The notes beneath the pieces were generated by a model, which worked only from the letters and a program-made list of their open reading frames with translations, was not told the origin of the DNA and made no database searches. A stretch of DNA of 64,000 nucleotides from NCBI GenBank assembly GCA_965248535.1, contig CBDFJR010000002.1:1952001-2016000 (forward strand), given 5' to 3'. Shown piece by piece: positions 34,494 to 53,364 of the stretch (position 1 is its first letter; every line of letters starts with the position of its first letter). Both the position numbers and the translations under genes were made by a program. The stretch comes from Phormidesmis sp. (GTDB taxonomy: Bacteria; Cyanobacteriota; Cyanobacteriia; Leptolyngbyales; Leptolyngbyaceae).

Positions 34494-34723
34494 GGGTAGG
34501 TCACCAGTCGTTACCCCTAAATTTTAGTGGATTCGGGGAAGGCTAGAGTTTTTACGACAGGTCTTGTGTGAACTTTCTGTAAATGTAATCAATACCTCTA
34601 TGAAAGTAAGTAAGTCTAGGTAAGAATGACACTCAGTGAGCCTAATTAATTGGGTGAACTTACTGGGGCATCTCCAAGAGGGGTCTACCAAACCACTTCA
34701 CCTTTATGGAGATCATTCAACTC

Positions 34724-35329
34724 ATGACGACTTTGAGCAACGTAAAAAAACTGTCTGTCATTGCCGCGGGCGCTACCTGCCTCACCTTGGGCGCACTAAA
34801 CCCGGCTCAAGCAATGAACCTGGTAACCAACGGCGGCTTTGAGACAGGCAATTTCTCAGGCTGGACTCAATCAGGCAACCTTGGTTTTACAGGTGTTGAC
34901 TCCACTTCTGCCAACAGTGGCAAATTTGGAGCTTTTTTGGGTTCGATCGGGTCTAAAGGCTTTTTGTCACAGGCGCTGACAACCATTGTGGGTCAAACCT
35001 ACAATCTCAGCTACTTCTTAAAGAATGATGGCGGAAACCCAAACAACTTTTCCGTTTCGGTTGGCTCAACTACCTTCTCTCTGCCAAACAATTATCCAGC
35101 TTTGCCGTTTTTAGAGTACGGTGCTAGCTTTGTTGCAACCGCAACTTCGACTCCGTTGACCTTCGCCTTTCAGCAAGATCCAGCTTATTTCAGACTGGAT
35201 GACGTGTCTGTGACCTCTACCTCTACCGCCATTCCGACTCCTGCACTCTTGCCAGGGTTGATTGGTTTAGGGTTTGGGGTGCTTCGCAAGCGTAAAGCTG
35301 CGGCAATGTCTGTAAAAGCCGAGAGCTAA
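34724..35329 (+). CDS. PTPA-CTERM (PEP-CTERM variant) surface protein with carbohydrate-binding-like domain
   Basis: Signal peptide, NLVTNGGFETG...LDDVSV, C-terminal IPTPALLPGLIGLGFGVLRKRK. Confidence 0.85.
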   Translation: MTTLSNVKKLSVIAAGATCLTLGALNPAQAMNLVTNGGFETGNFSGWTQSGNLGFTGVDSTSANSGKFGAFLGSIGSKGFLSQALTTIVGQTYNLSYFLKNDGGNPNNFSVSVGSTTFSLPNNYPALPFLEYGASFVATATSTPLTFAFQQDPAYFRLDDVSVTSTSTAIPTPALLPGLIGLGFGVLRKRKAAAMSVKAES

Positions 35330-35512: not shown

Positions 35513-36232
35513 TTAAGCTTCACTGCTGCCAGTCGCCTCAGTTTTGCGCTTTCGCAAGATCCCCAGACCCAACCCAATCAACCCTGGCAACAAAGCAGGT
35601 GTAGGAATTGCAGTGCCCCCAGTGGTGTTGAAGGAAACCTTATTAATTCCAAAGTCTTGGGGAGAATTTTGGCTGTCTTGAACATTGAGCAGTAGTTTAG
35701 CAATATCAGAATTGTCACTGAGAACCCCGATGAATATGGCTGAGTTATTGCCAGCACTGGTGGAATCGCCAGGTAGCGTAAAACTGCCGAGGCTAGTTCC
35801 GCTACTGTTAAACGCCTCAATTACCGCCGTGAACGAGCCAAAAGAATCTTGTTGAATCTGCGTTCCGAACCCGCGTATCGCTTGAGAGAAATTTAACTGC
35901 AATGGCCCCGGATTGTTGTTTGTCCACAAAACGGCATCACCGGGCGCAAAATTCCCATTCCATCCGCTGCCTTGGTCAAGTCTTTGAAGGGAGTTATTAT
36001 AGGGAATGCTACCCGTTATGGTGTTGCCACCTGTAGAACTAACTGTGAATGGGCTGGAAACCGAACTCAACGATGAACCAAGAACGCTCCAATCTAGAGT
36101 GTCATTCTCTCCCAGGTCAGAACGGCTCGTGACTAAGGAGAGAGCTTGAGAGGCGTTTGCAGTGCTAAGAGCAGCAACCACCGCACCTGCAACGGCCAGC
36201 AGAAAATTTTTGCGAATAGATAAAGCGGTCAT
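35513..36232 (-). CDS. PTPA-CTERM surface protein
   Basis: Signal peptide; C-terminal IPTPALLPGLIGLGLGILRKRK. Confidence 0.85.
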   Translation of the reverse strand: MTALSIRKNFLLAVAGAVVAALSTANASQALSLVTSRSDLGENDTLDWSVLGSSLSSVSSPFTVSSTGGNTITGSIPYNNSLQRLDQGSGWNGNFAPGDAVLWTNNNPGPLQLNFSQAIRGFGTQIQQDSFGSFTAVIEAFNSSGTSLGSFTLPGDSTSAGNNSAIFIGVLSDNSDIAKLLLNVQDSQNSPQDFGINKVSFNTTGGTAIPTPALLPGLIGLGLGILRKRKTEATGSSEA

Positions 36233-37590: not shown

Positions 37591-38931
37591 CTATTCGCCT
37601 GTAATCGATAATTCGTCTACCCAGACTCTAGGCGCAACCCCAGACCCCGTAAACTCTAGCTCCTTCTCGACATAGATAATCGACTTCAGCAGTTCACGAA
37701 TGTCGCCTGCCACCGTCGCCGACTCAACGCTAGTGCGCTTGCCGTCTTGCACTAGCCAACCATCAAACGGCAGCGAGAATGATCCCTGAGTCGCCTGCAC
37801 GCCAGCATGAAGAGCACTCAAATCATCAATCAAAATCACGTTATCCGCCGTGTCTAGACTATAGTCTTGCTGGGCTGCATCGCCCGCAAAAATGTGATAA
37901 AAGTGAGGACTCACCGTGATCTTAGACCCCATATTCGCGTGTCCCGTAGGTTGCGCGTCAAAGCGTTTAGCCGTGCCTGCACTGTGCAAAAAGCCCGACA
38001 ACACGCCGTTGGTGATCAACGGAACGCGACGAGTTGGGGTGCCTTCTCCGTCAAAGGTTTCTGCGCCCACGTTTTGAGGATGGAGCGCATCATCGCAGAG
38101 ACAGAGCAAGGGTGATGCAATCTGAGTTCCTAGGGATTCGGGAGTCGAAAGACTTTGGTTGTCGAGAATGCTCTGAGCGTTAAATAAGTTAGAAAACGCG
38201 CCAATCAAGCTGAGAATGGCTTCGGGCGAGAAGACGACCCGATATTTGCCCGTTTTCACCTTGTCGTAATTCAGATGACTGATGGTTTTCTCAGCCGCTT
38301 CTTTGAGACAGCCGTTGATATCTAACTCATTTAGCCCGTGACTGACCCGAAACGCCCCGGCGCTGCGCGGCTTTCTGCCCTCCTCCTCAGTTTTGGTATA
38401 AAGATAGAGAGAAGCGTAAGAGTGACCCTCTTGGCGCACGGCTCCGTCGCTGTTGAGATAGAAGCGATCGAGGTCTCGCTGCGCCAACCCATTATAGGGA
38501 ACGCCTTTAATCGCGGGGTGGGCTGCCAGCAGTTCTTTCTCTGCGCCGACGAGGGTTTCGAGCAGTTTAGCAACGGGCACTTGAAGATTTTTGACCTCAG
38601 CATGGGCTGCGGTGGGAGCCGTCGCTTCAGGACTGAATTCTGGCACGTTTTCTTTTACGCCAAAAAAGCTGGCTTCGTGAGCCGTTTTGAGGGCGAGTTC
38701 TAGCCCGATCGGGTCAACATCGGTCGTCGAAGTCACCCCAACTGAGTGCTCATCGTTCCAAACCCGAACGGTGACGCTCGATCGCTGCGAGGCTTTCATC
38801 TGCTGCGGTTCACCTTGATCGACCTGAACACTGGTCTCGTCGATCGCTGACCCATAAATATCGTATTTTTTGATGCCCAACTTGTGAGCCGAGTCTTTGG
38901 CGTAGGATGCAATGTCGTCAATTTTAGGCAT
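37591..38931 (-). CDS. TldE/PmbA family protein
   Basis: FDGEGTPT, GSFSLP, TVAGD; follows tldD. Confidence 0.88.
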   Translation of the reverse strand: MPKIDDIASYAKDSAHKLGIKKYDIYGSAIDETSVQVDQGEPQQMKASQRSSVTVRVWNDEHSVGVTSTTDVDPIGLELALKTAHEASFFGVKENVPEFSPEATAPTAAHAEVKNLQVPVAKLLETLVGAEKELLAAHPAIKGVPYNGLAQRDLDRFYLNSDGAVRQEGHSYASLYLYTKTEEEGRKPRSAGAFRVSHGLNELDINGCLKEAAEKTISHLNYDKVKTGKYRVVFSPEAILSLIGAFSNLFNAQSILDNQSLSTPESLGTQIASPLLCLCDDALHPQNVGAETFDGEGTPTRRVPLITNGVLSGFLHSAGTAKRFDAQPTGHANMGSKITVSPHFYHIFAGDAAQQDYSLDTADNVILIDDLSALHAGVQATQGSFSLPFDGWLVQDGKRTSVESATVAGDIRELLKSIIYVEKELEFTGSGVAPRVWVDELSITGE

Positions 38932-39005
38932 GGGAGTTCTTTACGTTAAAAAGAGTTGCGTAGAAACCTTCCACACAAAAGGTCTCTGTCGAAGAATGCA
39001 AGACG

Positions 39006-40478
39006 TTATCGACCGCCAACCGTGATCGAATCGACTTTAATATGAGGCTGTCCGACCGTGACGTAAATGCTGCCGCTCACAGAGCCACAGAACCCAGCCG
39101 CTAGCCCTAAATCGTTAGAACACATGGAAATCTTGTTCATGATTTCGGTGGCTTCACCAATCAGAGTTGCACCTTTAAGCGGCTTGGTGAGTTTGCCATT
39201 TTCGATTAAGTAAGCTTCGTCTACCGCAAAGTTGAACTGTCCCGTTGCGCCGACGCTGCCGCCGCCCATTTTTTTGCAATAGATGCCTTTGTCGATCGAG
39301 GCAAACAATTCGTCAACGGAGTAGTTGCCCGGCGCGATGTAGGTGTTCCGCATTCGGCTAGCCGCTGCGTGAGTATAGCTTTGACGACGACCGCTGCCCG
39401 TGCGGGGGTTTCCCGTGCGAACTGAACCCGCACGATCGGCGATGAAGTTCTTCAAAATCCCGTTTTCAATCAGCAGAGTGCGCTGGGCGGGCATTCCTTC
39501 GTCGTCCATGTCGATCGTGCCAAAGGCATCGCTGGTTAGTCCTTCATCCCAAGCGGTGAGATTTTCGTGGGCAATCTTTTCGCCTTTCTTCTCGGCAAAG
39601 GGCGTAGTTTTGCGCTCGATTTGCGTCGTTTCGAGCAAGTGACCGCAGGCTTCGTGGAAGATCACGCCGCCAAACTCATTAGCCATGACGATCGGGTAGT
39701 TGCCCGACTCTACATAGTCCGCATAGAGCATCTTTGAGGCAGAATCAGCTACTTCTTCGGCATCTTTGCCATAGTTCCAGGTTCTCAAGAAACCGGGTTC
39801 GCTGGTGCTGCCAACTCGCTTATTAATCGACGATCGTTGAGCGCCATCGGCACACAGCAGACTATAGCCTACCGACTGCGAGAGGCGAATATCTCGCGCA
39901 AAGGTGCCATCGCTAGAGGCGACTAAAACTTCTTGCCAATCGCGGAAGTAGACTGCCCGCCGAGACTGCACAAACTGGGCTTGGGTCGCTAACTGACCGT
40001 TTGCCGCTAGCAAGACATCGCCCATTTCCCGCATAGAGCTACAGTCAGCCAACCAGGAATCTTTGCCCTTTTTAACGGCATAGTCTCTGAGTAATTCTAG
40101 GTTGGTTTCTGGCACATAGGAATTGGGAGCCGGAAGCTGCAATCCCATGATGGACAGGCCTTTTTCAAGGGCAGTCTTTAGCCCATTGAACGAGAGATCG
40201 TTGGTGCTGACATAGCAATCGGCTTTGCCGCGAAACACCCGCACCCCGGCACCCGTCGAGAGACGGGGCGAAATGCTGGTGATCGTGTCGTCTTCGGCCA
40301 TGCAGCTAATATAGTTGACGCGCTCTAGAAAAAACTCAATAAAGTCGGCACCTGCGGCACGCCCCAACCCCAAAAGCGTCGATAGCGGAGCCTCCCACGT
40401 TTCATCGAAGCGATCGGGCGTAGACTGATAGGTCAAACTTGGCAGTTCTTTGGAGATTAACAAGGTGGGAGATTGCAT
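39006..40478 (-). CDS. tldD: TldD metalloprotease
   Basis: [31 protein letters not shown]. Confidence 0.92.
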
Positions 40479-40594: not shown

Positions 40595-40648
40595 TGCATA
40601 ACCCGATCGTGCCATCCCTATTCAGAGAGTGTAAGAGGTTCACACCTC
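40595..40648 (+). promoter_or_regulatory. Shared upstream motif, copy 1 (putative alternative-sigma promoter)
   Basis: TGCATAA-N13-TCCCTAT-N7-GTGTAAG plus hairpin GAGGT-TCAC-ACCTC; same spacing as copy 2. Confidence 0.65.
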
Positions 40649-40678
40649 ACAAACACACTCACCTAAAGGATCACTACA

Positions 40679-41365
40679 ATGAAACTCGTCAAACTCTCTA
40701 GCTCTTTGGTTCTCGCTTCGGCTTTGTTCACGTCTTTGTTGCCTGTTAGCGCCGTTCGTGCAGATGACAATTCGGCTCTATTTGGTCAACTGGCGGGCAA
40801 GATTCAGTGTAGCGATGTGGGGTTAGGCTCTAACACCCAAAACAACCACGGTAGCTCTAGCTCGGCTCGCAACAACTCTAGCGCTAACAGCAGTTCAGCG
40901 TCGGGCAAAAATGCCAGCAGCCAGTCGAGCAACAGCAGCAACAAAGATGGCGGTGGCGGTGGCTTCAACATTCTTGGCATCTTTGGTGCCAGTGGTGGGG
41001 GTCAAGCTCAGAGCAATGATTCTAGCAATTCTAGCAATTCTAGCTCTTACAATCGGGGGAACTCGTCTAAGCAAGCTAGCTCGTCGCGTCAATCCAGTTC
41101 TTACAATCGCGATTCTTCAACAGTCGTGGTTGGCAAGGATTGCGATTCCAACAACGCTGCGGCGGCGGTGGTGATTACAACACTGGACACCAACAAAACG
41201 GCAAAAGAGATGAACTCTGAGAACAACACCACCTCACGCTATGGAATTGATGCTCAAATCAAAATCAATGACAGCAACAACAAGACGGCGGTTGATTTGT
41301 TTAACGCTCAACGACGATCGGGGGCTGTTAACAACCTGACTCAGTGGTATACACCCCAGCACTAA
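40679..41365 (+). CDS. Secreted Ser/Asn-rich hypothetical protein
   Basis: AAGGA RBS, signal peptide ending VRA, two Cys bracketing a low-complexity region. Confidence 0.8.
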   Translation: MKLVKLSSSLVLASALFTSLLPVSAVRADDNSALFGQLAGKIQCSDVGLGSNTQNNHGSSSSARNNSSANSSSASGKNASSQSSNSSNKDGGGGGFNILGIFGASGGGQAQSNDSSNSSNSSSYNRGNSSKQASSSRQSSSYNRDSSTVVVGKDCDSNNAAAAVVITTLDTNKTAKEMNSENNTTSRYGIDAQIKINDSNNKTAVDLFNAQRRSGAVNNLTQWYTPQH

Positions 41366-41410
41366 CCTAAGTTTGAGAGTCTTGTCTCGATCGCTGTTCA
41401 CTGAGTTTGC

Positions 41411-41447
41411 AAGTAGGAGTCCTTAATTGGGTGCTCCTACTTTTTTT
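41411..41447 (+). terminator. Intrinsic terminator
   Basis: AAGTAGGAG...CTCCTACTTTTTTT. Confidence 0.75.
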
Positions 41448-41539
41448 GTGGATGGGGTACTGGGTTCGGTCTGGTTGGGCGATTGCGGGGGGCGGTGGTT
41501 GGGAGGGATTTGAGGGGACGGTGGTTGGGGCGACGCGAG

Positions 41540-41564
41540 GGGGCATGGCGTGCCATGCCCCTAC
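41540..41564 (-). repeat. GTAG-family REP-like palindrome
   Basis: Minus strand GTAG-GGGCATGGC-AC-GCCATGCCC. Confidence 0.6.
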
Positions 41565-41598
41565 GGGGATGCGCGATCGGGGGAGATTTTGCATCTCT

Positions 41599-41650
41599 TG
41601 CATAAATCTTGAATGTGCTCCCTATGGATGAGGTGTAAGGGTTACAACCC
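41599..41650 (+). promoter_or_regulatory. Shared upstream motif, copy 2
   Basis: TGCATAA-N13-TCCCTAT-N7-GTGTAAG plus hairpin GGGTT-AC-AACCC. Confidence 0.65.
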
Positions 41651-41674
41651 ATTTCAACCAAAGGAGACACTTCC

Positions 41675-42595
41675 ATGAACGTTCGCACTCTGTTAAATCT
41701 GGCTTTGTTGCTCTCGGTTTCTGCTCCGGTTGTTCTGCCTGCGGCGGCGGCTGAGGTCATGGTCACCACTTCCACAACGACGACGACAACCACTCGCCAA
41801 GGCGCGATGATTCCTCAGACGGCGGGCGTAGTGATCAAGCTTCCGGCGGCGATCGCGGTAGATGTAGGACAAAAGCAAGATTATCCGATGACGGTGCCTC
41901 TCGCGCAGCCGTTGATGGATTCACAGGGCAATGAAGTCGTGCCGATGAATACGCCTGTCACCATCAAGTTCAAGCCTGAAAACGGCGGCGCAAAAATTGT
42001 GGCAGAATCCATTGTGGTAAGAGGTCAAATTGTGGCAATTCAAGCCATGAGTGCAGTGATTCCAGGAAACACGATTACTCAGCAGAGCGGGGCCGATCGG
42101 GCCCGTGAAAATAGCGGCATGTTGGGAAATCTGTTTGGAGCGGTGATGGGAGCGACGGCGGGCGAATCACACAAAGCCTCGGCGTTTGATCAAGGTGGCA
42201 TGATTGGGGGCGCGATCGGCATTCTCAGCGGCATGACCTCGCCTAAAAATATTCGGATTGTGCAGCTTCCTGCCGATAGTGTGTATGTGTTGACGCTGCA
42301 AGCGCCGATCTCACTGCCGACGATCGCTGTTACTCCCCAAGCCGACTCTGTTCAAGCTAGCGCTAATCAGCCTCAATTCAATTTTCACAACATTACGGAC
42401 TATAGCAAAGGACTAGAGCAGGTGATCAGTGGGTTTAAACAAGGGCAACTTTCTCAAGTCGATGCTCGTCGAGTTGTCGTCAGCGCTGACCAATATGCGA
42501 CGACTCAGCTAACGTCAAAACTTTATCCTCCGGCGGGTCTGCGTCGTCAAGTTGCTCAATTGTTTGACTACACTTACGGCATCGATCGTAAATAA
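41675..42595 (+). CDS. Secreted hypothetical protein with glycine-zipper-like segment
   Basis: AAGGAG RBS, signal peptide, beta-rich core, GMLGNLFGAVMG...GGMIGGAIGILSG. Confidence 0.8.
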   Translation: MNVRTLLNLALLLSVSAPVVLPAAAAEVMVTTSTTTTTTTRQGAMIPQTAGVVIKLPAAIAVDVGQKQDYPMTVPLAQPLMDSQGNEVVPMNTPVTIKFKPENGGAKIVAESIVVRGQIVAIQAMSAVIPGNTITQQSGADRARENSGMLGNLFGAVMGATAGESHKASAFDQGGMIGGAIGILSGMTSPKNIRIVQLPADSVYVLTLQAPISLPTIAVTPQADSVQASANQPQFNFHNITDYSKGLEQVISGFKQGQLSQVDARRVVVSADQYATTQLTSKLYPPAGLRRQVAQLFDYTYGIDRK

Positions 42596-42624
42596 ATTCC
42601 ACCTTTATCCTCACCCCGCCGACT

Positions 42625-45600
42625 ATGCCCCGCGCTATTAGCCGACCCACTCTTCCCCTCGAAACTGGCAAAGCCAAACTGTGGATTTTGCTGGTCGGGG
42701 TCAATCACTACCAAGATACTCATCTGCCTTCGCTGCACTATCCTGCCCTCGACTGTCAGGGGTTAGCTGACGCGCTCACCGAGGCGACTCAAGAGTTTCC
42801 TCAGCGAGAAATTCGCACTCATCATGACTTTGGGGCAGCGGTGCCTGATTTAGCATCGGTGCGGCAAACGCTTCAGCAGATGGTCACAGACGCGCAGCCT
42901 CAAGACACGGTTCTGGTCTACTTTTCGGGGCATGGTGTGCTGGACGATCGCACTCAACAAGCGGTGTTGTGTTTAGCCGATACTCAAAAAGACAACTTGT
43001 TAGAAACCGGGTTAGGGGTTGCAGAATTGTTGGAGTTGTTGGGGCAGTGTGCAGCCCGTCAGCAGGTGATTTGGCTCGATGCTTGTCACAGTGGCAGCAT
43101 GACGCTGCGAAGCGCAAAAGGAGCCTCGATCGAGTTGCCCAATCCCACGGCCCAAATGATGAATGTGTTAGGACAACGCGCTGCCCAAAGTCAAGGATTT
43201 TATGCCCTGCTGTCGTGCGATCGTGCTCAACAATCCTGGGAGTTTCCTGAACTAGGGCATGGGGTGTTTACCTACTTTCTGATGCGGGGTTTGCGGGGTG
43301 AGGCCGCAGACGCTCAGGGCACGATCGAAGCAGACGGACTTTATAAATATGTCTATCACCAAACCCTGCAATACATCGACAAAACCAATCAGCAGTTGCG
43401 ATTAATCAATCAACAAAAGCGCAGTCGCGGCAACACTCAGCTTCAAACTGAGTATCCCATGCAAACGCCAAAACGCATTGTTGAGGGCATTGGTGAATTG
43501 ATTTTGGGCGTGCGATCGACGACAAATTCTCCTCAAAATCCCCGCCAGGCGCTGGTGATTGCCGGGCTTCCGAGCCAGCAAACGACGCTGAGTTTGAGCA
43601 AGGTGCTGCATCAGGCAGGCGGCTTTGATTTAGACTACTATCCGCAATCGGGCAAAGATTGGTCAGCCGTGCGCGAGGCTATTCAAACCTGTCTGCGATC
43701 GGCAGAGCCTCATCCCAGCCTCGCTCCTACGGCCCTCCTCTATCTGCGCGGACGGATTGAAGAAACAGCCGCAGGCGATTCCTGGCTGATCTTGGGAGAG
43801 ACTCGCATCGCCCGATCGTGGCTGCGCCAAGCCTTGCGTCACTCGCAAATGACCCAGCAAATTATCGTTTTAGACTGCCCCGGCGCGACCACTTTATCAG
43901 AGTGGATTGAAGAATTGCAGCTTGGCAACGATCAGGGACAATGCCTGATTGCGGCAGCATCTCCGACGACAGAATCTGAAAAATTTGCTCAAATCTTGCT
44001 AGAAACCTTAAAAGTGGGCGATCGTCCCGTCGGTCTGCCAGCCGCAGGCTGGATCGCACAACTGCAAATAGCATTAGCGGGAGAATTGCCGCTTCACGTT
44101 TGGCTATCAGGGGCCCAAGGCGTGATCGAAGTGTTGCCCGGACGAGTCGGATCGCGCCGCCCTGACACCGCAGGCTTTGACCTAGGATTCTGCCCCTATA
44201 TGGGGCTGAGAGCCTTTTCAGAAGAGGATTCTAGCTATTTTTATGGGCGAGAAGGGCTGACTCGCCAATTGATTCAGGCAGTCAGTCATCAAGCCTGTTT
44301 AGCGGTGGTGGGCGCATCAGGAAGCGGCAAATCTTCGATCGTGCAAGCCGGATTGATCGCGCAACTGCGACAAGGACAGCAAGTGCCGGGCAGTCAACAG
44401 TGGTGGATTGGGCACATGCGTCCGGGCGATCGCCCCTTAGAAGCCCTGGCTCGCCGACTAGTAGACCCTGGCAGCGACTCAGAGCAGTCCAGACAACAGC
44501 AGCAAATTGAAGGCATTTTGCACCAGGGCGCAGAAGGCTTTGTCTATTGGCTGCGATCGCGCCCCGAACCTGTTGTTATGCTCGTGATCGATCAATTTGA
44601 GGAATTATTTACCCTAGCAGCCACCGACGATCGCCAACAATTCCTAGCGCTGATTTTGGGGGCAGTGAACTATGCCAGCGATCGCTTTAAGTTAATCCTT
44701 ACGCTTCGCGCCGACTTCATTTCGCCCTGTTTAGAAGTTCCCGAACTGGCGACGATTTTGCAGCGATCGAGCGTTTTGGTGCCGCCTTATTTGACCGAAA
44801 ATGACTATCGCGACGTGATTCTTCGCCCAGCCGAACAAGTCGGATTGCAGGTCGAATCGGGGTTAGTCGAAGTGCTTTTGCAAGAACTCGACCACAGCGC
44901 CGGAGACTTGCCTTTATTAGAATTTGTCTTAGAACAACTGTGGCAACAGCGGCGATCGGGAGTGCTGACCCTGCACGCCTATCAACAACAAATTGGCGGA
45001 TTGCGGGGTGCCTTAGAGCGCAAAGCTGAGGCCGTTTATGACAGTTTAGACCCTGACGCTCAAGCCTGTGCTCGTTGGATCTTCTTATCGCTCACTCAGC
45101 TAGGAGAAGGCACCGAAGATACGCGCCGTCGAGTCTCTAAATCCGATTTGGTGGTGAAAAAATATCCGGCAGCGTTGGTCGATCGCACCCTTCAAGCCCT
45201 CGCGATCGCCAAACTGATTGTGATCGGAGTAGATGAACCAAACGCACACAGCAAGGGAGCACCACAGACTTCTGATTTTAGGCTCGATGCTTCCGCCACC
45301 GACGTTTCGATCGAGGTGGCCCACGAAATTTTGATTCGCTATTGGTCTACGCTGCGCTGGTGGTTAGAAGAAAATCGCAATCGCCTACGATCGCAGCGGC
45401 AGATCGAGCAAGCCGCCCTGCACTGGAAGCAGAGCGATCGTCAGTCCGATTTTTTATTGCGCGGCATTCGACTAGCCCAAGCTGAGGAACTCTATGTTAA
45501 CTACACCGACGAGTTGCCAACAGACACCCAGCGATTTATTGAAGCCTGCTTTAAAGAACGCCAGCGCGAACAAACAGAAGTCAAACGCAGACTCCGCAGA

Positions 45601-47736
45601 GCGCAGATGACCGCGATCGTGATCGGAGCGCTAGGCATCGCAGCATCGGGATTAGCAGGCTTTTCCTATTGGCAGCAGCGCAATGCCCAACTTCGCACGA
45701 TCGAAGCCTTAGCAGCTTCTTCTGAGGCGCTGTTATCGTCTAATCATCAGCTAGAAGCCTTGATAGCAGGAGTCAAAGCAGGACAGCAGATCAAAAAAAT
45801 GGCTCAGGTCTGGAATCCGATCGCGATGACTTCTCGCATGGGAACAATTGCTACTCTCCAACAGGCGCTCGATCTCACTCAAGAACTCAACCGATTAGAA
45901 AAACACAGTCAAAAAGTCAATGATATTAATATAAATAATAATGGAACCTTAATCGCTACGGTCAGTGACGATAAAACAATTCAGCTATGGAAAAATGACG
46001 GCACTTGGATTAGAGAAATAAAAACTCAGGAGCGCCTCAACGCCGTTACATTTAGTCCGGTTAATAACACGTTAGCAACCGCCAGCGCCGACAAAACCAT
46101 CAAACTGTGGAATCAAGACGGAACCCTCTTAAAAACCTTAACCGGACATCAAGACTGGACAACCGATGTGCAGTTTAGCCCCGATGGTCAAAGGTTAGCC
46201 AGCGCCAGTCGAGACGGCACGATTAAACTTTGGCGGCTCGATCGCAACACCCCCATGCAAACATTTCAAGGTCACAAAGGCTGGGTAAACAGCATTCGCT
46301 TTAGCCCTGATGGCAAAACTTTAGTGTCTGCTGGGGAAGACGGCACCATCAAATTTTGGCCAACTGACGGCAAAAATAGCCGATCGCTGAAGAGTTTTGT
46401 AGGACACCGCGATCGGATCACTGCCCTCAGCTTCAGTCCCGATGGCACCCTGATCGCATCTGCCAGCGCCGATAAAACCGCAAAACTTTGGTCACTCACG
46501 GGGCAGTTAGTGCAAACCTTTGCCGGGCACACCGATCAGGTAAATGATAGCCGCTTTCATCCCCAGGGCAAAACGCTAGCGACGGCGGGGGCTGATGGCA
46601 CCATCAAACTTTGGAGCTTAAATGGAGAACTGCTGCACACGATTAGCGCCTCGCGCACCACCGAAGCAGCCGCGGCCCACTCAGCCGAGATTACCCGCGT
46701 TCGATTTAGCCCAGATGGAGCCGTTTTGATGACTGCCAGCGCCGACAAAACCGCCAGACTGTGGCGAGTGCCCGACCTCACGCCACCTAATAGTGGGCTG
46801 TCGATCGCCAGTCTTAGCCCCGACGGTCAGACGATCGCCGCCGTCAATGACAAAACCATTCAGCTTTGGCGACGAAATCACGGAACCATCCAACCCTTAG
46901 CGATCGCGTTTAAGGGACACACCGCCCCGATTACAGCCTTAGAATTCAGTCCCGATGGCACCCTGATTGCGTCTGCCAGCACCGACAAAACCATCAAACT
47001 TTGGAACGTGACCACCGGATCGCAACTCAGAACCTTAACCGGACATCGCGATCGCGTCACCGCTCTCAGCTTTCGCCCCGATGGCAAACTTCTCGCATCC
47101 GGCAGCGCCGACAAAACCATCAAACTCTGGAACGTGTCCACCGGATCGCAACTCAGAACCTTAACCGGGCCCACCGACGAAATTACCGCCGTGCGCTTTA
47201 GCCCCGATGGGCGACTTCTCGCATCGGGCGGCTATGACAACACCCTCAGACTTTGGGTAGGTGACAGCCCTGCGTCGATTGTCGTTGGACGGCATCAACT
47301 CGCGATCGCGGCCATCGCCTTTAGCCCCGACGGTCACTCGATCGCGTCTGGCAGTTGGGACAACACCCTCAAACTTTGGACGCTTCACGATGCCACACCC
47401 AGCCCAGAAGTCACTCTCAGCCAGACCTTTAGCGGACACAGTGATGCAGTAACCAGCCTCAGCTTTAGCTCAGATAGTCAAATGCTTGCCTCAGGCAGCG
47501 CCGACACGACCCTAAAGCTTTGGGATGTCAAAACGGGTTTGCTCAAAACCCTCAGCGGCAGCCGCGATCGCCCTCAAAGTGTCAACTTCAGCGCAGACGG
47601 CAAAACGCTAGTCAGCAGCAGCGATCGTCAAGGCGTGGCAGTGTGGAACCTGGATTTAGACGACCTCTTAAAGCAAGGCTGCGATCGACTGCAACCCTAT
47701 TTGCAAAGCCACCCCGATCGTGAGGTGTGCCCTTAA
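42625..47736 (+). CDS. Caspase-like protease + degenerate caspase + STAND (nSTAND1-like) NTPase + TM helix + WD40 repeats
   Basis: YFSGHG and LDACHSG dyad; CPYMGLRAF, GASGSGKSS, VIDQFEELF, EVAHE; TM helix IVIGALGIAASGLAGFSYW; about 14 WD40 repeats. Confidence 0.9.
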   Translation: MPRAISRPTLPLETGKAKLWILLVGVNHYQDTHLPSLHYPALDCQGLADALTEATQEFPQREIRTHHDFGAAVPDLASVRQTLQQMVTDAQPQDTVLVYFSGHGVLDDRTQQAVLCLADTQKDNLLETGLGVAELLELLGQCAARQQVIWLDACHSGSMTLRSAKGASIELPNPTAQMMNVLGQRAAQSQGFYALLSCDRAQQSWEFPELGHGVFTYFLMRGLRGEAADAQGTIEADGLYKYVYHQTLQYIDKTNQQLRLINQQKRSRGNTQLQTEYPMQTPKRIVEGIGELILGVRSTTNSPQNPRQALVIAGLPSQQTTLSLSKVLHQAGGFDLDYYPQSGKDWSAVREAIQTCLRSAEPHPSLAPTALLYLRGRIEETAAGDSWLILGETRIARSWLRQALRHSQMTQQIIVLDCPGATTLSEWIEELQLGNDQGQCLIAAASPTTESEKFAQILLETLKVGDRPVGLPAAGWIAQLQIALAGELPLHVWLSGAQGVIEVLPGRVGSRRPDTAGFDLGFCPYMGLRAFSEEDSSYFYGREGLTRQLIQAVSHQACLAVVGASGSGKSSIVQAGLIAQLRQGQQVPGSQQWWIGHMRPGDRPLEALARRLVDPGSDSEQSRQQQQIEGILHQGAEGFVYWLRSRPEPVVMLVIDQFEELFTLAATDDRQQFLALILGAVNYASDRFKLILTLRADFISPCLEVPELATILQRSSVLVPPYLTENDYRDVILRPAEQVGLQVESGLVEVLLQELDHSAGDLPLLEFVLEQLWQQRRSGVLTLHAYQQQIGGLRGALERKAEAVYDSLDPDAQACARWIFLSLTQLGEGTEDTRRRVSKSDLVVKKYPAALVDRTLQALAIAKLIVIGVDEPNAHSKGAPQTSDFRLDASATDVSIEVAHEILIRYWSTLRWWLEENRNRLRSQRQIEQAALHWKQSDRQSDFLLRGIRLAQAEELYVNYTDELPTDTQRFIEACFKERQREQTEVKRRLRRAQMTAIVIGALGIAASGLAGFSYWQQRNAQLRTIEALAASSEALLSSNHQLEALIAGVKAGQQIKKMAQVWNPIAMTSRMGTIATLQQALDLTQELNRLEKHSQKVNDININNNGTLIATVSDDKTIQLWKNDGTWIREIKTQERLNAVTFSPVNNTLATASADKTIKLWNQDGTLLKTLTGHQDWTTDVQFSPDGQRLASASRDGTIKLWRLDRNTPMQTFQGHKGWVNSIRFSPDGKTLVSAGEDGTIKFWPTDGKNSRSLKSFVGHRDRITALSFSPDGTLIASASADKTAKLWSLTGQLVQTFAGHTDQVNDSRFHPQGKTLATAGADGTIKLWSLNGELLHTISASRTTEAAAAHSAEITRVRFSPDGAVLMTASADKTARLWRVPDLTPPNSGLSIASLSPDGQTIAAVNDKTIQLWRRNHGTIQPLAIAFKGHTAPITALEFSPDGTLIASASTDKTIKLWNVTTGSQLRTLTGHRDRVTALSFRPDGKLLASGSADKTIKLWNVSTGSQLRTLTGPTDEITAVRFSPDGRLLASGGYDNTLRLWVGDSPASIVVGRHQLAIAAIAFSPDGHSIASGSWDNTLKLWTLHDATPSPEVTLSQTFSGHSDAVTSLSFSSDSQMLASGSADTTLKLWDVKTGLLKTLSGSRDRPQSVNFSADGKTLVSSSDRQGVAVWNLDLDDLLKQGCDRLQPYLQSHPDREVCP

Positions 47737-47757: not shown

Positions 47758-49179
47758 CTATCTAAAATGGGCAAGTCGCGCTTCCGGTTTTGAGGTCGCC
47801 TCGATCGGGAGTTTTTCCCAATTCCAATCCGCGATCGCTAACAGCGCAAACCAGTAAAAAAACAGCGTCGTATGGCTCCAAATATTTTCGGTTAACATGC
47901 CCACCATCGCAGCGAGCAAAAAGGCAACCAACACAGAACAAAATCGTTTCTGTGAAAGAGTCGTAAAAGGAGACCGGATCAGTTGGAACAATCGAACAAA
48001 CTGTACTCCAAAAAATGATAGATAGAGAGCCAGCCCGGTAAAGCCTTCTTCAACCAGCACCCTAATATAGTCATTGTGCGCCCAAGCAAACATCGGCCCA
48101 AACGAATTACTAGTTTGCAGCCCATAGCCCAGCACCGGAGCATGTTGCCAATGGCCAACTAGTGAAGTCCACTGAGCAATTCGCCAGTTAAAACTATTGT
48201 TGTCTGATGCCGCCAACAAGACCGCACGAGACGCATCAATCTGTGAATTGAACAAGGGAGTTTCAGCGATCGAGGCCAATCGTCCCCTGCCAAACTCAGT
48301 GCTCGAAAACAGACCAAACATTAACGAAATCAACACCAGCGCCGCAACTAGATTGGCAAAATTGAGTCGAGGCAACACTAGAGCCGCGATCAGCACAACC
48401 AGCATCGCAATGCCAATCAGCACCTTTGTGCTCACTAGAAAGAACACAAGGAGAATCATCAACATGACCCAAGGGAGACGCTGTTTGGTATTGGTGATCT
48501 TCCAATAAGTTAACCCAATAAAAAAAATCAGAAACGTTGCAAATGTATTGGACAAGCCCAGGGTGCCGTTGATTCGCGAATCCTGTTGTCCTTGATTAAC
48601 AGCCAAAAATGACGGCAGAAAGTGAGCCGGAATGATCAGTTGAAGCAGCGCTGCTGTCAAAGGAACAATCAGAGCTAGAAAGAGCCGATTGATAAACTTC
48701 TCTGGAGGGAGGCGATCTTTTAGCTGCAAGGTGAGCAGATAACACATAACCCAGCTAGAGACTCGCACCCACTCCCGCATGGCTTCAGGCAGGCGCTCAA
48801 CTCCCAACTCTGAGCCACCCAACGGCAGCAAGATCACCCACACTCCCTGAAGGGCAACCCAGCCTGCAAAAAACCACCAGAAGCCGTCAATTTCTACCTT
48901 CTGTTTTGCCAGCAGGCGAGTCACGACATAGATGATTGTTAAAGCAGAAAGCCCGATCGCAAACGCACCCGTCACACCTTTTTCAGAAAACGGATCGAGG
49001 GCACTTCTTAAAATTAAAAGTCCGAGTACGGCTATCTCAAAACTGTTGAAGAAAAAAGCGATCAGGACAGGAGCCACCAAAAACAGACCGACATAGAGAG
49101 GCTTGGTTCCAGTCTGAAAGCCCACTACAATGCCGATTAAGACTCCAAAAATCCCAACTAAGCGCCCTAAATTGATCAT
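47758..49179 (-). CDS. O-antigen ligase/Wzy-type polymerase
   Basis: Multi-TM; RINGT, NSFNWR, GYGL, AHNDY. Confidence 0.85.
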   Translation of the reverse strand: MINLGRLVGIFGVLIGIVVGFQTGTKPLYVGLFLVAPVLIAFFFNSFEIAVLGLLILRSALDPFSEKGVTGAFAIGLSALTIIYVVTRLLAKQKVEIDGFWWFFAGWVALQGVWVILLPLGGSELGVERLPEAMREWVRVSSWVMCYLLTLQLKDRLPPEKFINRLFLALIVPLTAALLQLIIPAHFLPSFLAVNQGQQDSRINGTLGLSNTFATFLIFFIGLTYWKITNTKQRLPWVMLMILLVFFLVSTKVLIGIAMLVVLIAALVLPRLNFANLVAALVLISLMFGLFSSTEFGRGRLASIAETPLFNSQIDASRAVLLAASDNNSFNWRIAQWTSLVGHWQHAPVLGYGLQTSNSFGPMFAWAHNDYIRVLVEEGFTGLALYLSFFGVQFVRLFQLIRSPFTTLSQKRFCSVLVAFLLAAMVGMLTENIWSHTTLFFYWFALLAIADWNWEKLPIEATSKPEARLAHFR

Positions 49180-49285
49180 GAAATTTCTCTGATGATGTTC
49201 TCTCTAATTCACGGCATCTTAAGTCGTGAATTGAATCAATTTTTGACACTCTCCACCACCTAGGTGAACGGTGTATTCTGCAAAC

Positions 49286-49732
49286 TTAGATAAACTTAAA
49301 ATCTTTAGAGCCATTGCATCCCGGCATCCGCGATTGTCGCCGCGTGAATTCACCAACCGAAGGGTTGCCATTGGGGTCAAGAACGCCCTGGGCCTGCCGC
49401 CAAAGCTCTGTGGGTGGAATAGACAACTGATAGGAGCGAGGCCCTGTTTTGTGTACATGATACCACTGAGTTTTGTGGCACTCTTGGCACCAAAATGCTT
49501 CTAGCCACTCTCCATCTAGGGAGACGGTTGATCGATTAGACATCAGCAGCAGAGCGCTTTTGCGACTGACTCCGCGGGCTTGCAGTTGCTCAGAGAGATC
49601 GGCAAACAGCGAATGTTTGGGGCTGACGCTATCCAGGTGGTTTCCGTCGATCGGGCAAAAAATTGCGCGTCTTTTTGAGCGTTTCCGGCTGCGATCGCAG
49701 CGTCGCAACACTTCGGTTTTTTCATCTAGCAC
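49286..49732 (-). CDS. Hypothetical Cys-containing protein in EPS locus
   Basis: 148-aa ORF with FCP and EAFWCQEC motifs; start codon uncertain. Confidence 0.7.
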   Translation of the reverse strand: MLDEKTEVLRRCDRSRKRSKRRAIFCPIDGNHLDSVSPKHSLFADLSEQLQARGVSRKSALLLMSNRSTVSLDGEWLEAFWCQECHKTQWYHVHKTGPRSYQLSIPPTELWRQAQGVLDPNGNPSVGEFTRRQSRMPGCNGSKDFKFI

Positions 49733-49986
49733 AATATCAACTGAGTAAGATTTGCAGGAACAAACTAAGTCTTGACGAAGCTCTTGAAAACCCAGATGTC
49801 AAGTCAGAACATGGATTGAGTCAACCGTCAAAACTACATTAGTAGTCTCAACCAGTTATCTCACACGAGACTTAGATAGATCAGTATTTTCAACTAGCTT
49901 AATCAAGCCTTCACTACTGCTTTACAAAATCTTTTTTATCGAAACAACTAATTCAGCCAAGAGTAGAGTCTAGAAATCAGGGTGAT

Positions 49987-51144
49987 CTATTTAAGCAAGT
50001 TCAGAATGGTAGTAATGGGATAAAACGGAATCAAAACTCGACCTAGCGTATCAAAAAACTTACTAGATCCCGTTTTTTTGACCACAATTAAGTCACCATT
50101 TCTCAGCGAAACAGAGGGCTTATCAAAGTCAAAGGTCTGACGCTCTAGCTGCCCATCAGGAGACATCCGAAATAGATCGATCGAGCGTTTGTCGGCTTTA
50201 TCAGTCGGGCCACCTGCCGCCGCGATCGTCTCAGCCACCCTAGCATTAGGTGCAACGTCGGTTTGCCCCGGCCGATTTACCTCTCCCGTCACCTGCACCG
50301 TAATTTTGGTGGGCGCGATCGTCGAAGTCAACAGCGCTTGCTGATCAGGGGTGCTGAGTTGGGCAGGCGGAACAATAATCTCATCCCCATCATAGATTCG
50401 GGCATCTGCCGTCAGATCGCCACTCTTCACCGCTTTCCACAGATCTACTTTGATCTCAGTTCTCACTAGTGTTGGAGACGAAGAAGGCGGCAAAGACAGA
50501 GAAGACGGGGGAAACGGCGAAGAGAGCGACGACGGGGCAAAGTTTGCAGCAATGCGATTATTGGGAACAAGCCGACGAATAATGATGTTGCGGAGGTCTG
50601 CGGTCGGCGTGATGCCCCCTGCCAAAATCAGCGCATCGCTGGCTGTCACGGGGCTGCTGCTCTGAGAGCCACCCACCGACGTTCGATTGAGTTGATTTTG
50701 TTGAACAAACGGATTTAACAACCGCGGCCCAGGTTGCAGCACTTCGCCCGTGACGCTAACCCGCAGGGGGCTGAGGCTCAACAGCGACAAGGCGACTTGC
50801 GGGCGACGCACATAAGGGCGCAGAGACTCAGTTACTAGAGTCGCCGCCTGCACCGGAGTCAGTCGGGCAACCCTGATTAACCCAGCCAACGGTAGCTGAA
50901 TCGTTCCATCCGACAAAATGATCTGATCACCCGACAGATCAGGAAACCCAGCCACCGTTAAACGCAGTTGATCACCTGCTTTAAGCGGAGTCGTGGCCTG
51001 CACATCAGCAGGCAGATCTAGCCCTTGAGTTTGAGCCAATCCAGGGTGGGCGGTCATGCCTAGGGCGATCGCACCCGACAGAGCAGTGCAAACGAGAAGT
51101 CCAGTAGTTTTCATGGTTTGAGCTTTAAGAAGATAAACCGTCAT
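49987..51144 (-). CDS. wza: Polysaccharide export protein (Wza/SLBB family)
   Basis: GDQL, DGTIQLPLAG, GEVLQPG, GEVNRPG, AAGG. Confidence 0.85.
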   Translation of the reverse strand: MTVYLLKAQTMKTTGLLVCTALSGAIALGMTAHPGLAQTQGLDLPADVQATTPLKAGDQLRLTVAGFPDLSGDQIILSDGTIQLPLAGLIRVARLTPVQAATLVTESLRPYVRRPQVALSLLSLSPLRVSVTGEVLQPGPRLLNPFVQQNQLNRTSVGGSQSSSPVTASDALILAGGITPTADLRNIIIRRLVPNNRIAANFAPSSLSSPFPPSSLSLPPSSSPTLVRTEIKVDLWKAVKSGDLTADARIYDGDEIIVPPAQLSTPDQQALLTSTIAPTKITVQVTGEVNRPGQTDVAPNARVAETIAAAGGPTDKADKRSIDLFRMSPDGQLERQTFDFDKPSVSLRNGDLIVVKKTGSSKFFDTLGRVLIPFYPITTILNLLK

Positions 51145-51157
51145 GGAGAGAGAGCGC

Positions 51158-53293
51158 TCAGACCGTAGAGCCTAGCGGGTTTCGACGTGAGAAATCTTTG
51201 GTCGGCAGTTGAGGAGTGTTAGAGGGATTTGAACGATCGTTGGCAGCGGGGTCTGGGGTCGCAGTCACTACCGTTCCCAAGACTGAGGAACCACTTTTTT
51301 GCAGATCTGCGGTGGTCTGAAGCGCGATCGCTTTGGGCGTAAACTCTGGGCGCACCACTAAAACCATGCCATCGGTATATTCGTTGAGCGTCATCGCATC
51401 TGCATATCGGCTCACAGGCGAAGTGTCAATAATCACCAAATCGTATTGAGCCATCGCTTGGGTCATCAAGGTTTTCATCGCTGAAGCTTCTAGCACCTGC
51501 GCCGGACGGTTAAACCACTGACCGTGGGGCAACAGACTTAAATGCTCGATCGCCGTTGGCAGCACCACCGACTGCAACGGCAGATTCTCACTGACCGCAT
51601 CGGTCAAACCAGGTTGGTCAGGCACATCAAAAAACTGATGCTGTAAGGGATGGCTCAAGTCAGCATCGATCAACAGCGTGCGTCGAGACAGCATGGCCGC
51701 CACCATCGCTAGCCGTGCCGCCACATTTGATTTCCCTTCGCCAGCCACGCTGCTAGTGATTAAGACTGACTTCAACGGGTCGCTGCTGTTAAGCTCTAGG
51801 GTTTTGAGCAGTCTCCGGTAGGGTTCGACCGCCGCCGGGTTGTTTAAGAAGCGCTCAAGCTGGCCCGCTTTGAGAGCAGGCAAGCGATCGGTGAGCACGC
51901 CCAACACAGGAAGCTTAAGTTGAGATTCGGCTTCGGCGGCGCTGCCAATTTTGGTATTGAGCAACTCGCCGATGAGAATCACCCCGATCGCCAGCACGGC
52001 CCCAGCAGCACTGCCTAACATTAGCCCTAGAAACGGTTTGGGGCTGGCGGGCGCAGCAGGAACTGACGCTAGTCCAACAATGCGAACATTGCTCACCAGT
52101 TGCGCCTCTGCAACGCGAGCTTCTTCAAGCTTGTTTTGCAAGAGCTTGAGGGTAGCAGCTTCTTGCTCGCGTCGTCGCATTAAGTTAGACAACACACGTT
52201 GCTTGGCCGGAAGCGTCGATAGGCGATCGCGCAAAGGCTGCTGTTGTTGGGTGACCGTGTTGAGCTTGTCTTGCAAAGCACTGCGTTCGACTTCACCCGT
52301 GATGTAGTTAGAAATTAAGGCTCGACTCAAGTCATCTGCCGCGACTTTGCCAGAGGCTAGCCCCTGTTGACCTGGCACAATGCGGCCCAGACTTTGAGTA
52401 TAGAGCGATCGCGTCTCATCTCGCTTTTGAATCAGCGCCAGCAGATCGGGATGTTGATCTCCTAAGCGAGACCGGGCATCAATGACTTGAGCTTCGAGGT
52501 CGGTGAGTTTGCCCCTCAAGGTCTTTAGCTCATCGTCTTGCCCCGCACGCGAGGCTAGATAGGCAGTTTGCACATTGTTGACTCCGATCACTCCTTGCAG
52601 CAGCCCACTTTTTCGCTGAGACTCTGCGAGTTGGGCAGAGAGGGTGCGGCCCTGGTCTTCTATGGTGGCAAGACTGTTCACCAGACTGGTGTCCTGCGCG
52701 TCGAGGGCGACAATGCCATTGGCTTCTTTAAAGCGACTTTCGGCGAGTTCAGCCTGCTCTAGGTTTGCTTGCTGCTGCGGCACTCGTGTTTCTACGAATT
52801 CTCTGACTGATGACGCTTGTTGACGAATTGACTCTCCACTTTCTTGAACAGCAGCCTGCGAGACGGCGTTTAGCACCTCTGATGCCAATTTAGGATCTGG
52901 GTTTTTGTAGCTCAGTTCAAGAATGCTGGTAGCAGGCACAATTTTGACCCTGATCGCCCCACTTAGCTCACCCACCGACGGCAGAGGCTTCTCTGAGGCG
53001 CTTCTAGGCTCAAGCATCCCCACGGCTCGCTTCAAGACACGCTCTGAGGTGATCAATTCGGCTTGAGTCGCGATCGGGCTAGCATTTCCAGCCGTAGAGT
53101 TAGCCGCTAGTGCCTGCCCTAACTCAGAAACGCTGACCCGCCGTTCGTCTAAAATCAGGCGAGCCGAGCTTTCATAAACAGGAGGTGTGACGCGCAGATA
53201 TAAGGCTGAGGCCCCGATAACAGCGGCAAAGGTGGCAAATGCATTCCAAAAATTACGTTTTAGTACGGGCGTGAGCGATGGCATCCCATTCAT
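51158..53293 (-). CDS. wzc: Polysaccharide copolymerase (Wzc/GumC family)
   Basis: Two TM helices, PVYES, coiled coil with HPD, LPVLG, GEGKS, LLIDADL, DTSP. Confidence 0.88.
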   Translation of the reverse strand: MNGMPSLTPVLKRNFWNAFATFAAVIGASALYLRVTPPVYESSARLILDERRVSVSELGQALAANSTAGNASPIATQAELITSERVLKRAVGMLEPRSASEKPLPSVGELSGAIRVKIVPATSILELSYKNPDPKLASEVLNAVSQAAVQESGESIRQQASSVREFVETRVPQQQANLEQAELAESRFKEANGIVALDAQDTSLVNSLATIEDQGRTLSAQLAESQRKSGLLQGVIGVNNVQTAYLASRAGQDDELKTLRGKLTDLEAQVIDARSRLGDQHPDLLALIQKRDETRSLYTQSLGRIVPGQQGLASGKVAADDLSRALISNYITGEVERSALQDKLNTVTQQQQPLRDRLSTLPAKQRVLSNLMRRREQEAATLKLLQNKLEEARVAEAQLVSNVRIVGLASVPAAPASPKPFLGLMLGSAAGAVLAIGVILIGELLNTKIGSAAEAESQLKLPVLGVLTDRLPALKAGQLERFLNNPAAVEPYRRLLKTLELNSSDPLKSVLITSSVAGEGKSNVAARLAMVAAMLSRRTLLIDADLSHPLQHQFFDVPDQPGLTDAVSENLPLQSVVLPTAIEHLSLLPHGQWFNRPAQVLEASAMKTLMTQAMAQYDLVIIDTSPVSRYADAMTLNEYTDGMVLVVRPEFTPKAIALQTTADLQKSGSSVLGTVVTATPDPAANDRSNPSNTPQLPTKDFSRRNPLGSTV

Positions 53294-53364
53294 GAGGCAA
53301 ATCCAGTTGGAGAATATTAATTGGCTGGTTAACTTAACAAGGCGCTGCGTGGGGCATTTCAGGC

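Follow-up and report, generated by a model that had tools for sequence, protein, structure and literature searches.

How does a cyanobacterium control the gene for a membrane receptor that joins a caspase to a STAND NTPase and WD40 repeats, and what might such a receptor control in turn? The question is raised by a 64,000-nucleotide stretch of DNA from Phormidesmis sp. (the window; G000:C2:1952001-2016000, where G000 is the 5.03-Mb genome of the window), in which the gene for such a receptor follows two genes, A and B, that encode proteins with signal-peptide-like N-termini and are preceded by the same spaced motif. The original prediction, made from the letters of the window alone, was that an outward-facing WD40 sensor activates the caspase, which switches on a dedicated sigma regulon of secreted proteins with positive feedback on the receptor. 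The explanation that we favour, with a probability of roughly 0.62, is that the motif is a promoter read by a 394-residue sigma factor, that a DUF1822 protein holds this sigma factor off, and that the membrane caspase releases it by cutting DUF1822.

A conserved two-box motif and probable promoter

Both copies of the motif are present as first described, with three boxes (TGCATAA, TCCCTAT and GTGTAAG) at identical spacing (40595-40635 and 41599-41639; 0 expected, 100 shuffles), as are an AAGGA site ahead of each gene (40666-40670 for A, 41661-41666 for B) and the ATG of the caspase gene at 42625, 30 nucleotides past the end of gene B at 42595. No sigma-70 housekeeping promoter was found on the + strand between 40300 and 43000. 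The hairpin that had been placed after each promoter did not hold up: the leader hairpins of A and B are weak (z -1.85 and -0.04), and a riboswitch-like element was dropped because the folding is not significant. When the genome was scanned, the exact three-box form gave only these two copies, with none more at one to four mismatches, and it was dropped as the motif of a genome-wide regulon in favour of a two-box core, TGCATA-N16-CCTA, which was found before homologues.

This core is the conserved part of the motif. TGCATAA and CCTA stand at one spacing upstream of every A or B homologue examined in other genomes, 17 loci in four genera (another B locus, whose sequence starts within the gene, was excluded), whereas GTGTAAG is a genus-level extra, exact in 7 of the 17 promoters, all from the genus of the window, with TGT retained in 16; the third box is also not conserved in the 39 sites described below that head caspase units. 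The core accompanies gene A even where A lies far from B and the caspase gene (G003, G006, G011 and G020). A broader sample was drawn from named cyanobacterial genomes: the loci of the best 80 among 581 confirmed caspase homologues, together 1.33 Mb. The core matches there 59 times, 50 of these in intergenic DNA ahead of a gene, in 42 loci; at spacer 17 there are 10 matches and at each other spacer 4 or fewer. The core heads the caspase unit in 39 of the 74 loci that parsed (six did not), 25 times directly before the caspase gene, and with the genus of the window excluded it does so in 36 of 70, versus 0-1 at spacers 13-15 and 17-19. The expected ECF-like (extracytoplasmic function) bipartite promoter is supported by a two-box core with one spacing, and the expected feedback on the receptor gene by the position of that core. 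We consider it very likely that TGCATA-N16-CCTA is a sigma-type promoter. Its 6-mer, 16 nucleotides and 4-mer follow the geometry of the HetZ promoter (PMC13342950), which would place the transcription start about GTGTAAG, as had been guessed.

It could be argued that duplication of a 5' cassette left the two copies behind and that they carry no regulatory meaning. An alignment of the leaders of A and B does extend from the first box into the signal peptide (score 82, against at most 49 in 300 shuffles), so the copies may share ancestry and are not independent evidence, and no other place in the genome has the three-box form. However, their spacers and flanks have diverged, and both boxes with their spacing are fixed across genera and before unrelated genes, which makes this explanation extremely improbable.

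A relaxed form of the core has 7 matches in G000, of which 4 are intergenic and upstream of genes with signal-peptide-like starts (judged by eye); the other 15 spacings give 14 matches, 1 of them upstream. When a matrix built from other genera is used, promoter B ranks first in the genome and the site beside the 394-residue sigma gene second, while promoter A falls under the threshold used. A site at C5:1838876 was dropped, being in coding DNA with no gene downstream, and a loose motif pattern was left unused because its background was too high. Matches with a near-identical spacer (TACTCCGCCCTCA-like) in two other genomes (G002:C28:79744, C30:401212, C50:6608, C62:85583; G001:C16:83824) are probably a dispersed repeat containing the motif. 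A Fischerella start-site table, which covers selected genes only, has 20 rows with GCATAA and 11 with TGCATA, none of them with CCTA at spacer 16.

A sigma factor and a DUF1822 protein that track the caspase

For the dedicated sigma factor and the anti-sigma of the original prediction, neither of which is encoded in the window, there is a good candidate pair 0.69 Mb from the locus, namely a 394-residue sigma-70-type gene (G000:C2:1302960-1304144) followed by a DUF1822 gene. The sigma protein scores 110.5 bits against TIGR02937 (cut-off 42.9) and is above the cut-offs of PF04545 and PF08281, with PF04542 at 19.3 bits, below its cut-off of 24. Foldseek matches listed for its structure model (predicted local distance difference test score 80.4, predicted TM-score 0.44) are sigma-70 factors or their polymerase complexes, the best E-value being 2.2e-6 to sigma-70 factors at a low TM-score of 0.2. 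The relaxed scan found a core at C2:1304174, before a 205-residue exported-type gene divergent from the sigma gene, and this site is retained in 8 of 8 orthologous loci. A second core lies inside the 3' end of the sigma gene, ahead of DUF1822. In 29 sigma genes outside the clade of CHAT-linked paralogues described below, the His codon of this internal site is CAT in 27 of 27 His-bearing rows versus a 52% background, and 28 of the 29 have a -10 codon with A as its last base, versus 15% elsewhere in these genes; the full internal CCTA is retained only in the sigma factor's own clade and two others. The DUF1822 protein has no hydrophobic helix, and a basic residue is retained in an exposed G-A-R-G-S-like linker.

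Several counts tie this pair to the caspase. A search of the homologue neighbourhoods, as had been proposed, found a sigma gene in 16 of the 80 caspase loci: 15 are closer to the 394-residue sigma than to a 404-residue paralogue in G000, none shows the reverse, and one is of another type. DUF1822 matches occur in 14 of the 80, all closer to the partner of the 394-residue sigma (two are weak or partial), and sigma-DUF1822 operons in G009, G011 and G038 contain or adjoin caspases with the same two N-terminal domains, with two such cases in G038. Among 151 genomes of the class, the second domain of the caspase is found in 20, and all 20 have the matching DUF1822 C-terminus versus 5 of the 131 others. 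This occurrence is patchy inside families (f1 2/11, f9 2/12, f16 4/11), which lessens the problem of kinship but does not remove it. Motif density is 0.66 per Mb in the 25 genomes with that DUF1822 versus 0.21 in the other 126, with a reversed-motif control at 0.22 and 0.19, respectively. Two genomes whose single DUF1822 adjoins this sigma (G004 and G006) have 5 sites each. In G001, which is 99% complete, no orthologue of the sigma, DUF1822 or caspase was found with these queries; there, a stop at codon 62 interrupts gene A, and of gene B only a relic is left, preceded by a promoter that survives.

The phylogeny of the sigma factors follows the type of protease beside them. In a quick tree of 45 sigmas, from which those under 330 residues, weakly matching ones and 500-residue types were left out, all 13 sigmas beside a CHAT protease fall into one clade with the 404-residue paralogue (approximate likelihood ratio support, SH-aLRT, 98), and the clade of the 394-residue sigma groups with 13 caspase-adjacent sigmas (90). 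For DUF1822, the tree was made with FastTree. In 13 CHAT-type paralogue loci (185 kb), five upstream sites end in CGTG or CGTA and none in CCTA, although these numbers are small. It is likely that the 394-residue sigma reads the motif, and we lean towards DUF1822 being both its anti-sigma and the substrate of the caspase.

Another reader of the two boxes is conceivable: they could be the operator of an ordinary activator or repressor, or be read by a different sigma, such as the 404-residue paralogue, a 478-residue DUF1822-linked protein or a HetZ-related protein, in which case the 394-residue sigma would be linked to the motif by neighbourhood only. The sigma-4 recognition helix QYTVSRRL is common to the 394-residue sigma and its paralogues, so all of these probably read TGCATA; two HetZ-related genes are present in G000; and the motif also precedes a different sigma class in one genome (G021, below). 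However, an operator accords poorly with a non-palindromic motif of one tolerated spacing, and sites are kept in G003, G004 and G006, which are without the 404-residue paralogue, G004 and G006 also being without a second DUF1822. The lack of CCTA in the CHAT-linked loci points the same way, as does the different sequence that HetZ reads, TCCGGA/TGnA (PMC13342950), and we find such an alternative reader rather improbable. A classification of the 394-residue sigma itself as HetZ or HetZ-related was rejected: NF037964 finds other G000 genes, hhalign gives a probability of 7% against a HetZ-related protein, and the promoter motif differs.

The caspase-STAND-WD40 receptor

The domains that had been read from the receptor gene are all there. 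The 1703-residue product matches the caspase family PF00656 (60 bits, cut-off 21.4), PF20703 for the nSTAND1 NTPase (416.6 bits) and PF00400 for the WD40 repeats (468.6 bits). The His103-Cys154 dyad is invariant in 10 of 10 sequences, together with Asp43 and Asp152, and 75 of 81 homologue open reading frames parse with both catalytic motifs. The fold is that of metacaspases and paracaspases (against metacaspase 4: Z 23.1, root-mean-square deviation 2.6, 221 aligned residues), and we take the two invariant aspartates to be compatible with the acidic S1 pocket of metacaspases. A second caspase-like domain, one that lacks the catalytic His, is suggested for residues ~305-505 (hhalign probability 80%, E 1.3e-5, 64 columns). 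One hydrophobic helix (995-1013) separates the NTPase from the WD40 repeats, so protease and NTPase are predicted to lie inside and the propellers outside, in line with the outward-facing sensor first envisaged. The protein is a member of the cyanobacterial orthocaspase-STAND-WD40 (Peptidase_C14) proteins, and its closest named relative is from Phormidesmis priestleyi (92% over residues 1-520). Short caspase variants of 700-880 residues without STAND-WD40 recur (L088, L089, L125, L160, L169, L172 and L190), and near them, beside the sigma pair, there is a Tll0287-HAMP gene and/or a phosphonate-binding-like gene, an arrangement that suggests a split sensor.

Genes behind the motif

The secreted-protein targets that had been expected correspond to a small set of exported-type genes behind sites. 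Among 28 non-caspase genes behind a site in the 80 loci, 17 have a hydrophobic N-terminus (9 B homologues and 2 A homologues among them), compared with a background of 246 of 870. Other genes behind sites encode a phage-type lysozyme, an M15 peptidase, a further peptidoglycan-binding protein, an RTX-repeat protein and a Rieske oxygenase, and in G020 and G003 genes for a VWD protein, an AAA_35 protein and a four-region sigma stand behind sites. This target set fits an envelope- or neighbour-directed response.

Some loci have two or three motif copies beside the caspase (L122:3058-5514, L137:7451-9803 and L167:8444-9394), and the genes behind them are peptidoglycan-binding, M15 peptidase or lysozyme genes and a small hydrophobic gene. 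In G000, a near-consensus CGCATA-N16-CCTA lies 34 nucleotides ahead of a gene for a 369-residue exported-type protein (C5:2122325-2124495, L056), and the gene after it has weak outer-membrane barrel matches.

A proposed circuit and the evidence against it

In the circuit that we propose, an extracytoplasmic ligand would bind the WD40 propellers, the nSTAND1 domain would oligomerise and thereby activate the caspase, and the caspase would cut the DUF1822 linker (G-A-R-G-S) after its conserved Arg. The freed sigma factor would then transcribe a few genes for exported proteins, namely A, B, the gene divergent from the sigma gene and probably the one at C5:2122383. It would also transcribe the receptor gene, as positive feedback, and, from the site inside its own 3' end, the DUF1822 gene, as negative feedback. 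The most likely trigger is a signal derived from the envelope or from neighbours.

The promoter and its sigma factor could be assigned correctly and the caspase still be a mere target of the regulon, that is, a death or proteolysis effector, with the sigma factor freed by some other input. A pure target would likewise show the motif before its unit, as seen in the 39 of 74 loci. The architecture of the caspase resembles that of NLR and apoptosome effectors, as is generally known. Orthocaspases are mostly discussed as death proteases in the accessible text of two surveys (PMC8283722, PMC2853523). Yet the other targets differ freely from lineage to lineage, whereas all 20 genomes with the caspase have the matching DUF1822 subtype; sigma-DUF1822 pairs adjoin one or the other kind of caspase-fold protease with matching sigma clades; and the exposed DUF1822 linker retains its basic residue. 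We therefore regard a caspase that is only a target as unlikely, and prefer one that acts on DUF1822.

A number of observations weigh against the proposed circuit. With 7 relaxed-core matches, G000 is no richer than its shuffles (4-7), so that only position and conservation mark true sites. Of the 74 parsed caspase loci, 35 lack an exact site where the unit begins and 6 carry CGTA or CGTG at that place instead, and in 64 of the 80 loci no sigma lies within the stretch examined. Five loci with the matching type of DUF1822 (68 kb, one ambiguous) have no upstream site, two genomes (G140 and G150) carry the system without an exact TGCATAA-N15-CCTA, and another (G023, 84% complete) has three sites without this sigma. 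The internal -10 box deviates in 10 of 18 caspase-adjacent sigmas (TGTA, GGTA, CATA, CGTA-type or more), and the motif in G021 heads an operon of a 512-residue sigma, DUF1822 and a caspase, so the promoter code is not exclusive. The genomes are also related, and the counts overstate independence. Finally, one extra base splits the DUF1822 gene in the G000 assembly (C2:1302338-1302378, L052:3349). Five genomes of the same genus have an intact gene, and the extra base is missing from the contigs of runs X1 and X2 (one study) that cover the place, so this split is likely an assembly error or a strain-specific change. A similar split was seen in G015 (L069, 222 and 185 residues).

Possible paralogous circuits

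A broader proposal, to which we give even odds, is that orthocaspase-STAND-WD40 proteins are NLR-like transmembrane receptors that drive transcription through cleavage of a DUF1822 anti-sigma and are not death executors. Paralogous circuits in one cell would have the TGCATA -35 box in common and be insulated by a one-to-two-base code in the -10 box (CCTA for C14-caspase, CGTG/CGTA for EACC2-CHAT); their outputs would include exported proteins and peptidoglycan hydrolases.

G000 holds a second circuit at G000:C5:2366137-2372982 (L053), with genes for a CHAT protein, the 404-residue sigma, DUF1822, a CHAT-CHASE2 protein and a DUF928 protein. Candidate targets of this sigma are marked by intergenic TGCATAA-N15-CGTG/CGTA at G000:C2:1569313 and 1569496 (in tandem, 183 nucleotides apart) and at C5:1488301. 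Elsewhere in the genome, a truncated 246-residue DUF1822 stands behind the 478-residue sigma-like gene (G000:C5:2354186-2356359), and another DUF1822 stands behind a gene for a 237-residue protein, between CHAT genes (G000:C5:767125-772836). Longer sigmas of 512-580 residues occur in sigma-DUF1822-caspase operons in L094, L095, L096 and L097, whose caspases are without the second domain; of these, L094 has the CCTA motif at the head of the operon, and L096 has it 10 kb upstream, before a same-strand run of genes.

Relation to known systems

The closest precedent is the neighbourhood of EACC2-caspases with an ECF sigma and DUF1822, for which a pathway of sensing, proteolysis and transcription was proposed (Kaur, Iyer, Burroughs, Aravind 2021, PMC8195603). 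As far as the accessible text of that work goes, both systems have a caspase-fold protease with a variable sensor, an ECF-like sigma and DUF1822, although here the sigma and DUF1822 genes lie outside the window, and near the caspase in 16 of the 80 homologous loci. G000 itself holds a locus of the type predicted in PMC8195603, the CHAT-CHASE2 gene beside the 404-residue sigma. That text gives no promoter and calls DUF1822 a TPR protein, not an anti-sigma (PMC8195603). The protease of the window differs in that it starts with Peptidase_C14 and has a second, degenerate caspase domain; with the caspase fold starting as early as residue 17-20, there is no space for an N-terminal EACC2 domain, so it is not an EACC2-caspase. 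Its sigma/DUF1822 subtype is a separate one, usually encoded in trans, and the box that goes with it is CCTA rather than CGTG/CGTA.

A similar logic has been described for HetF, PatU3 and HetZ in Anabaena PCC 7120. The available descriptions have HetF, a membrane caspase-fold protease, cut the inhibitor PatU3 after Arg117 (PMC9457339), and PatU3 block the enlarged ECF-type sigma HetZ, which also drives the inhibitor gene (PMC9457339, PMC13342950) from a promoter with a 6-mer, 16-17 nucleotides and a 4-mer (TCCGGA/TGnA; PMC13342950); cutting after Arg, a blocked sigma and control of the inhibitor gene are all likewise proposed here. Orthocaspases are described in the literature, as far as accessible, as cleaving after basic residues. 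HetF is described as a CHAT-transmembrane-TPR protein without a STAND switch, unlike the caspase of the window. Caspase-fold cutting of an anti-sigma that frees an ECF sigma with an autoregulated motif is also described in the accessible parts of reports on type III-E CRISPR Csx29/Csx30/CASP-sigma (PMC10028731) and on Myxococcus DdvA/DdvS (PMC11506125). By these accounts, the trigger of Csx29 is target RNA and the protease domain of DdvA is part of a membrane anti-sigma, and neither system has a STAND-WD40 receptor; no CRISPR genes were seen in the loci mapped.

The receptor family itself has been catalogued as beta-family metacaspases or orthocaspases with 13-15 WD40 repeats, with a Peptidase_C14 His-Cys dyad, an NTPase and WD40 as in the window protein (PMC2853523, PMC8283722). 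In the available text these works only catalogue the family: the word "promoter" does not appear in PMC2853523, nor does "sigma", which PMC8283722 uses once, as a symbol in statistics. In the open-access literature, we found no paper with this promoter or one that ties a C14 caspase-WD40 protein to a sigma, although the supplements of PMC8195603 and PMC13342950 may list such loci, and DUF1822 with a sigma, like EACC2, was found in PMC8195603 only. The module was first put forward as undescribed, and this stands only for the pairing of a C14 caspase-WD40 protein with a sigma and for its promoter; the receptor family and the proteolytic release of a sigma were already known, and the idea of protease, sigma and DUF1822 acting together had been predicted for EACC2-caspases (PMC8195603, accessible text).

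Cyanobacterial WD40 metacaspases have been catalogued since 2010 and mostly read as enzymes of programmed cell death, with neither a substrate nor an output. This large caspase subfamily now gains a candidate substrate (DUF1822, with its linker Arg), a named candidate sigma, an exact predicted promoter and a list of putative targets. If the proposed circuit is true, the logic known from HetF, PatU3 and HetZ would also apply to a STAND-gated receptor, in cyanobacteria with and without heterocysts, DUF1822 would gain a function, and an orthogonal sigma-promoter pair would become available.

Layout of the locus

The features of the locus are listed in Table 1. The three genes had been taken for one module, a view that the layout contradicts: a hairpin with a T-run between gene A and the B-caspase genes (z -3.06 for 41385-41455), although absent from the list of a simple terminator scan, indicates two transcription units, A and B-caspase. 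Gene A adjoins B and the caspase gene in only 3 of 9 genomes (relatives and self, being those that carry A plus either a full-length caspase orthologue or B), and B is present in 10 and A in 2 of the 80 caspase loci, so the three-gene arrangement is local.

Table 1. Coordinates of the features of the locus, numbered from the first letter of the window
Feature	Position	Strand	Description
Promoter A core TGCATA (predicted -35)-N16-CCTA (predicted -10)	40595..40620	+	
GTGTAAG, predicted start site of promoter A	40629..40635	+	
Gene A	40679..41365	+	228-residue Ser/Asn-rich protein, signal-peptide-like N-terminus
Terminator-like hairpin with T-run	41411..41447	+	3' of gene A
Promoter B core TGCATA-N16-CCTA	41599..41624	+	head of gene B-caspase unit
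GTGTAAG, predicted start-site region of promoter B	41633..41639	+	
Gene B	41675..42595	+	306-residue protein, signal-peptide-like N-terminus
Caspase-fold protease domain, residues 1-297	42625..43515	+	His103, Cys154, invariant Asp43/Asp152
Second, degenerate caspase-like domain, residues ~305-505	43534..44145	+	catalytic His replaced by Arg; no Pfam match
nSTAND1 NTPase, residues 524-941	44194..45447	+	Walker A GASGSGKSS at 563, Walker B IDQFEE at 655
Single predicted transmembrane helix, residues 995-1013	45607..45663	+	hydropathy only
WD40 repeats	45883..47736	+	12 stretches pass; predicted outside cytoplasm

No Pfam or NCBIfam family was matched by gene A, which has cyanobacterial hypothetical clusters only. 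Gene B was assigned to no family either; its glycine-zipper match is weak and below the cut-off, its atlas clusters are hypothetical, and a TrbI-like cluster (score 0.88) is a lead only. Divergent from gene A are tldD and a PmbA-like gene (37591-40478, - strand), and as gene A lies beside tldD in G001 too, B and the caspase gene probably moved in next to A. Convergent on the caspase gene is a set of exopolysaccharide-type genes (47758-54705, - strand) that encode an O-antigen ligase, export and chain-length-like proteins and a glycosyltransferase. Further upstream, two convergent genes (34706-35329, + strand; 35513-36232, - strand) encode exported proteins with a common C-terminal tail, AIPTPALLPGLIGLG..RKRK, which is like a protein-sorting signal.

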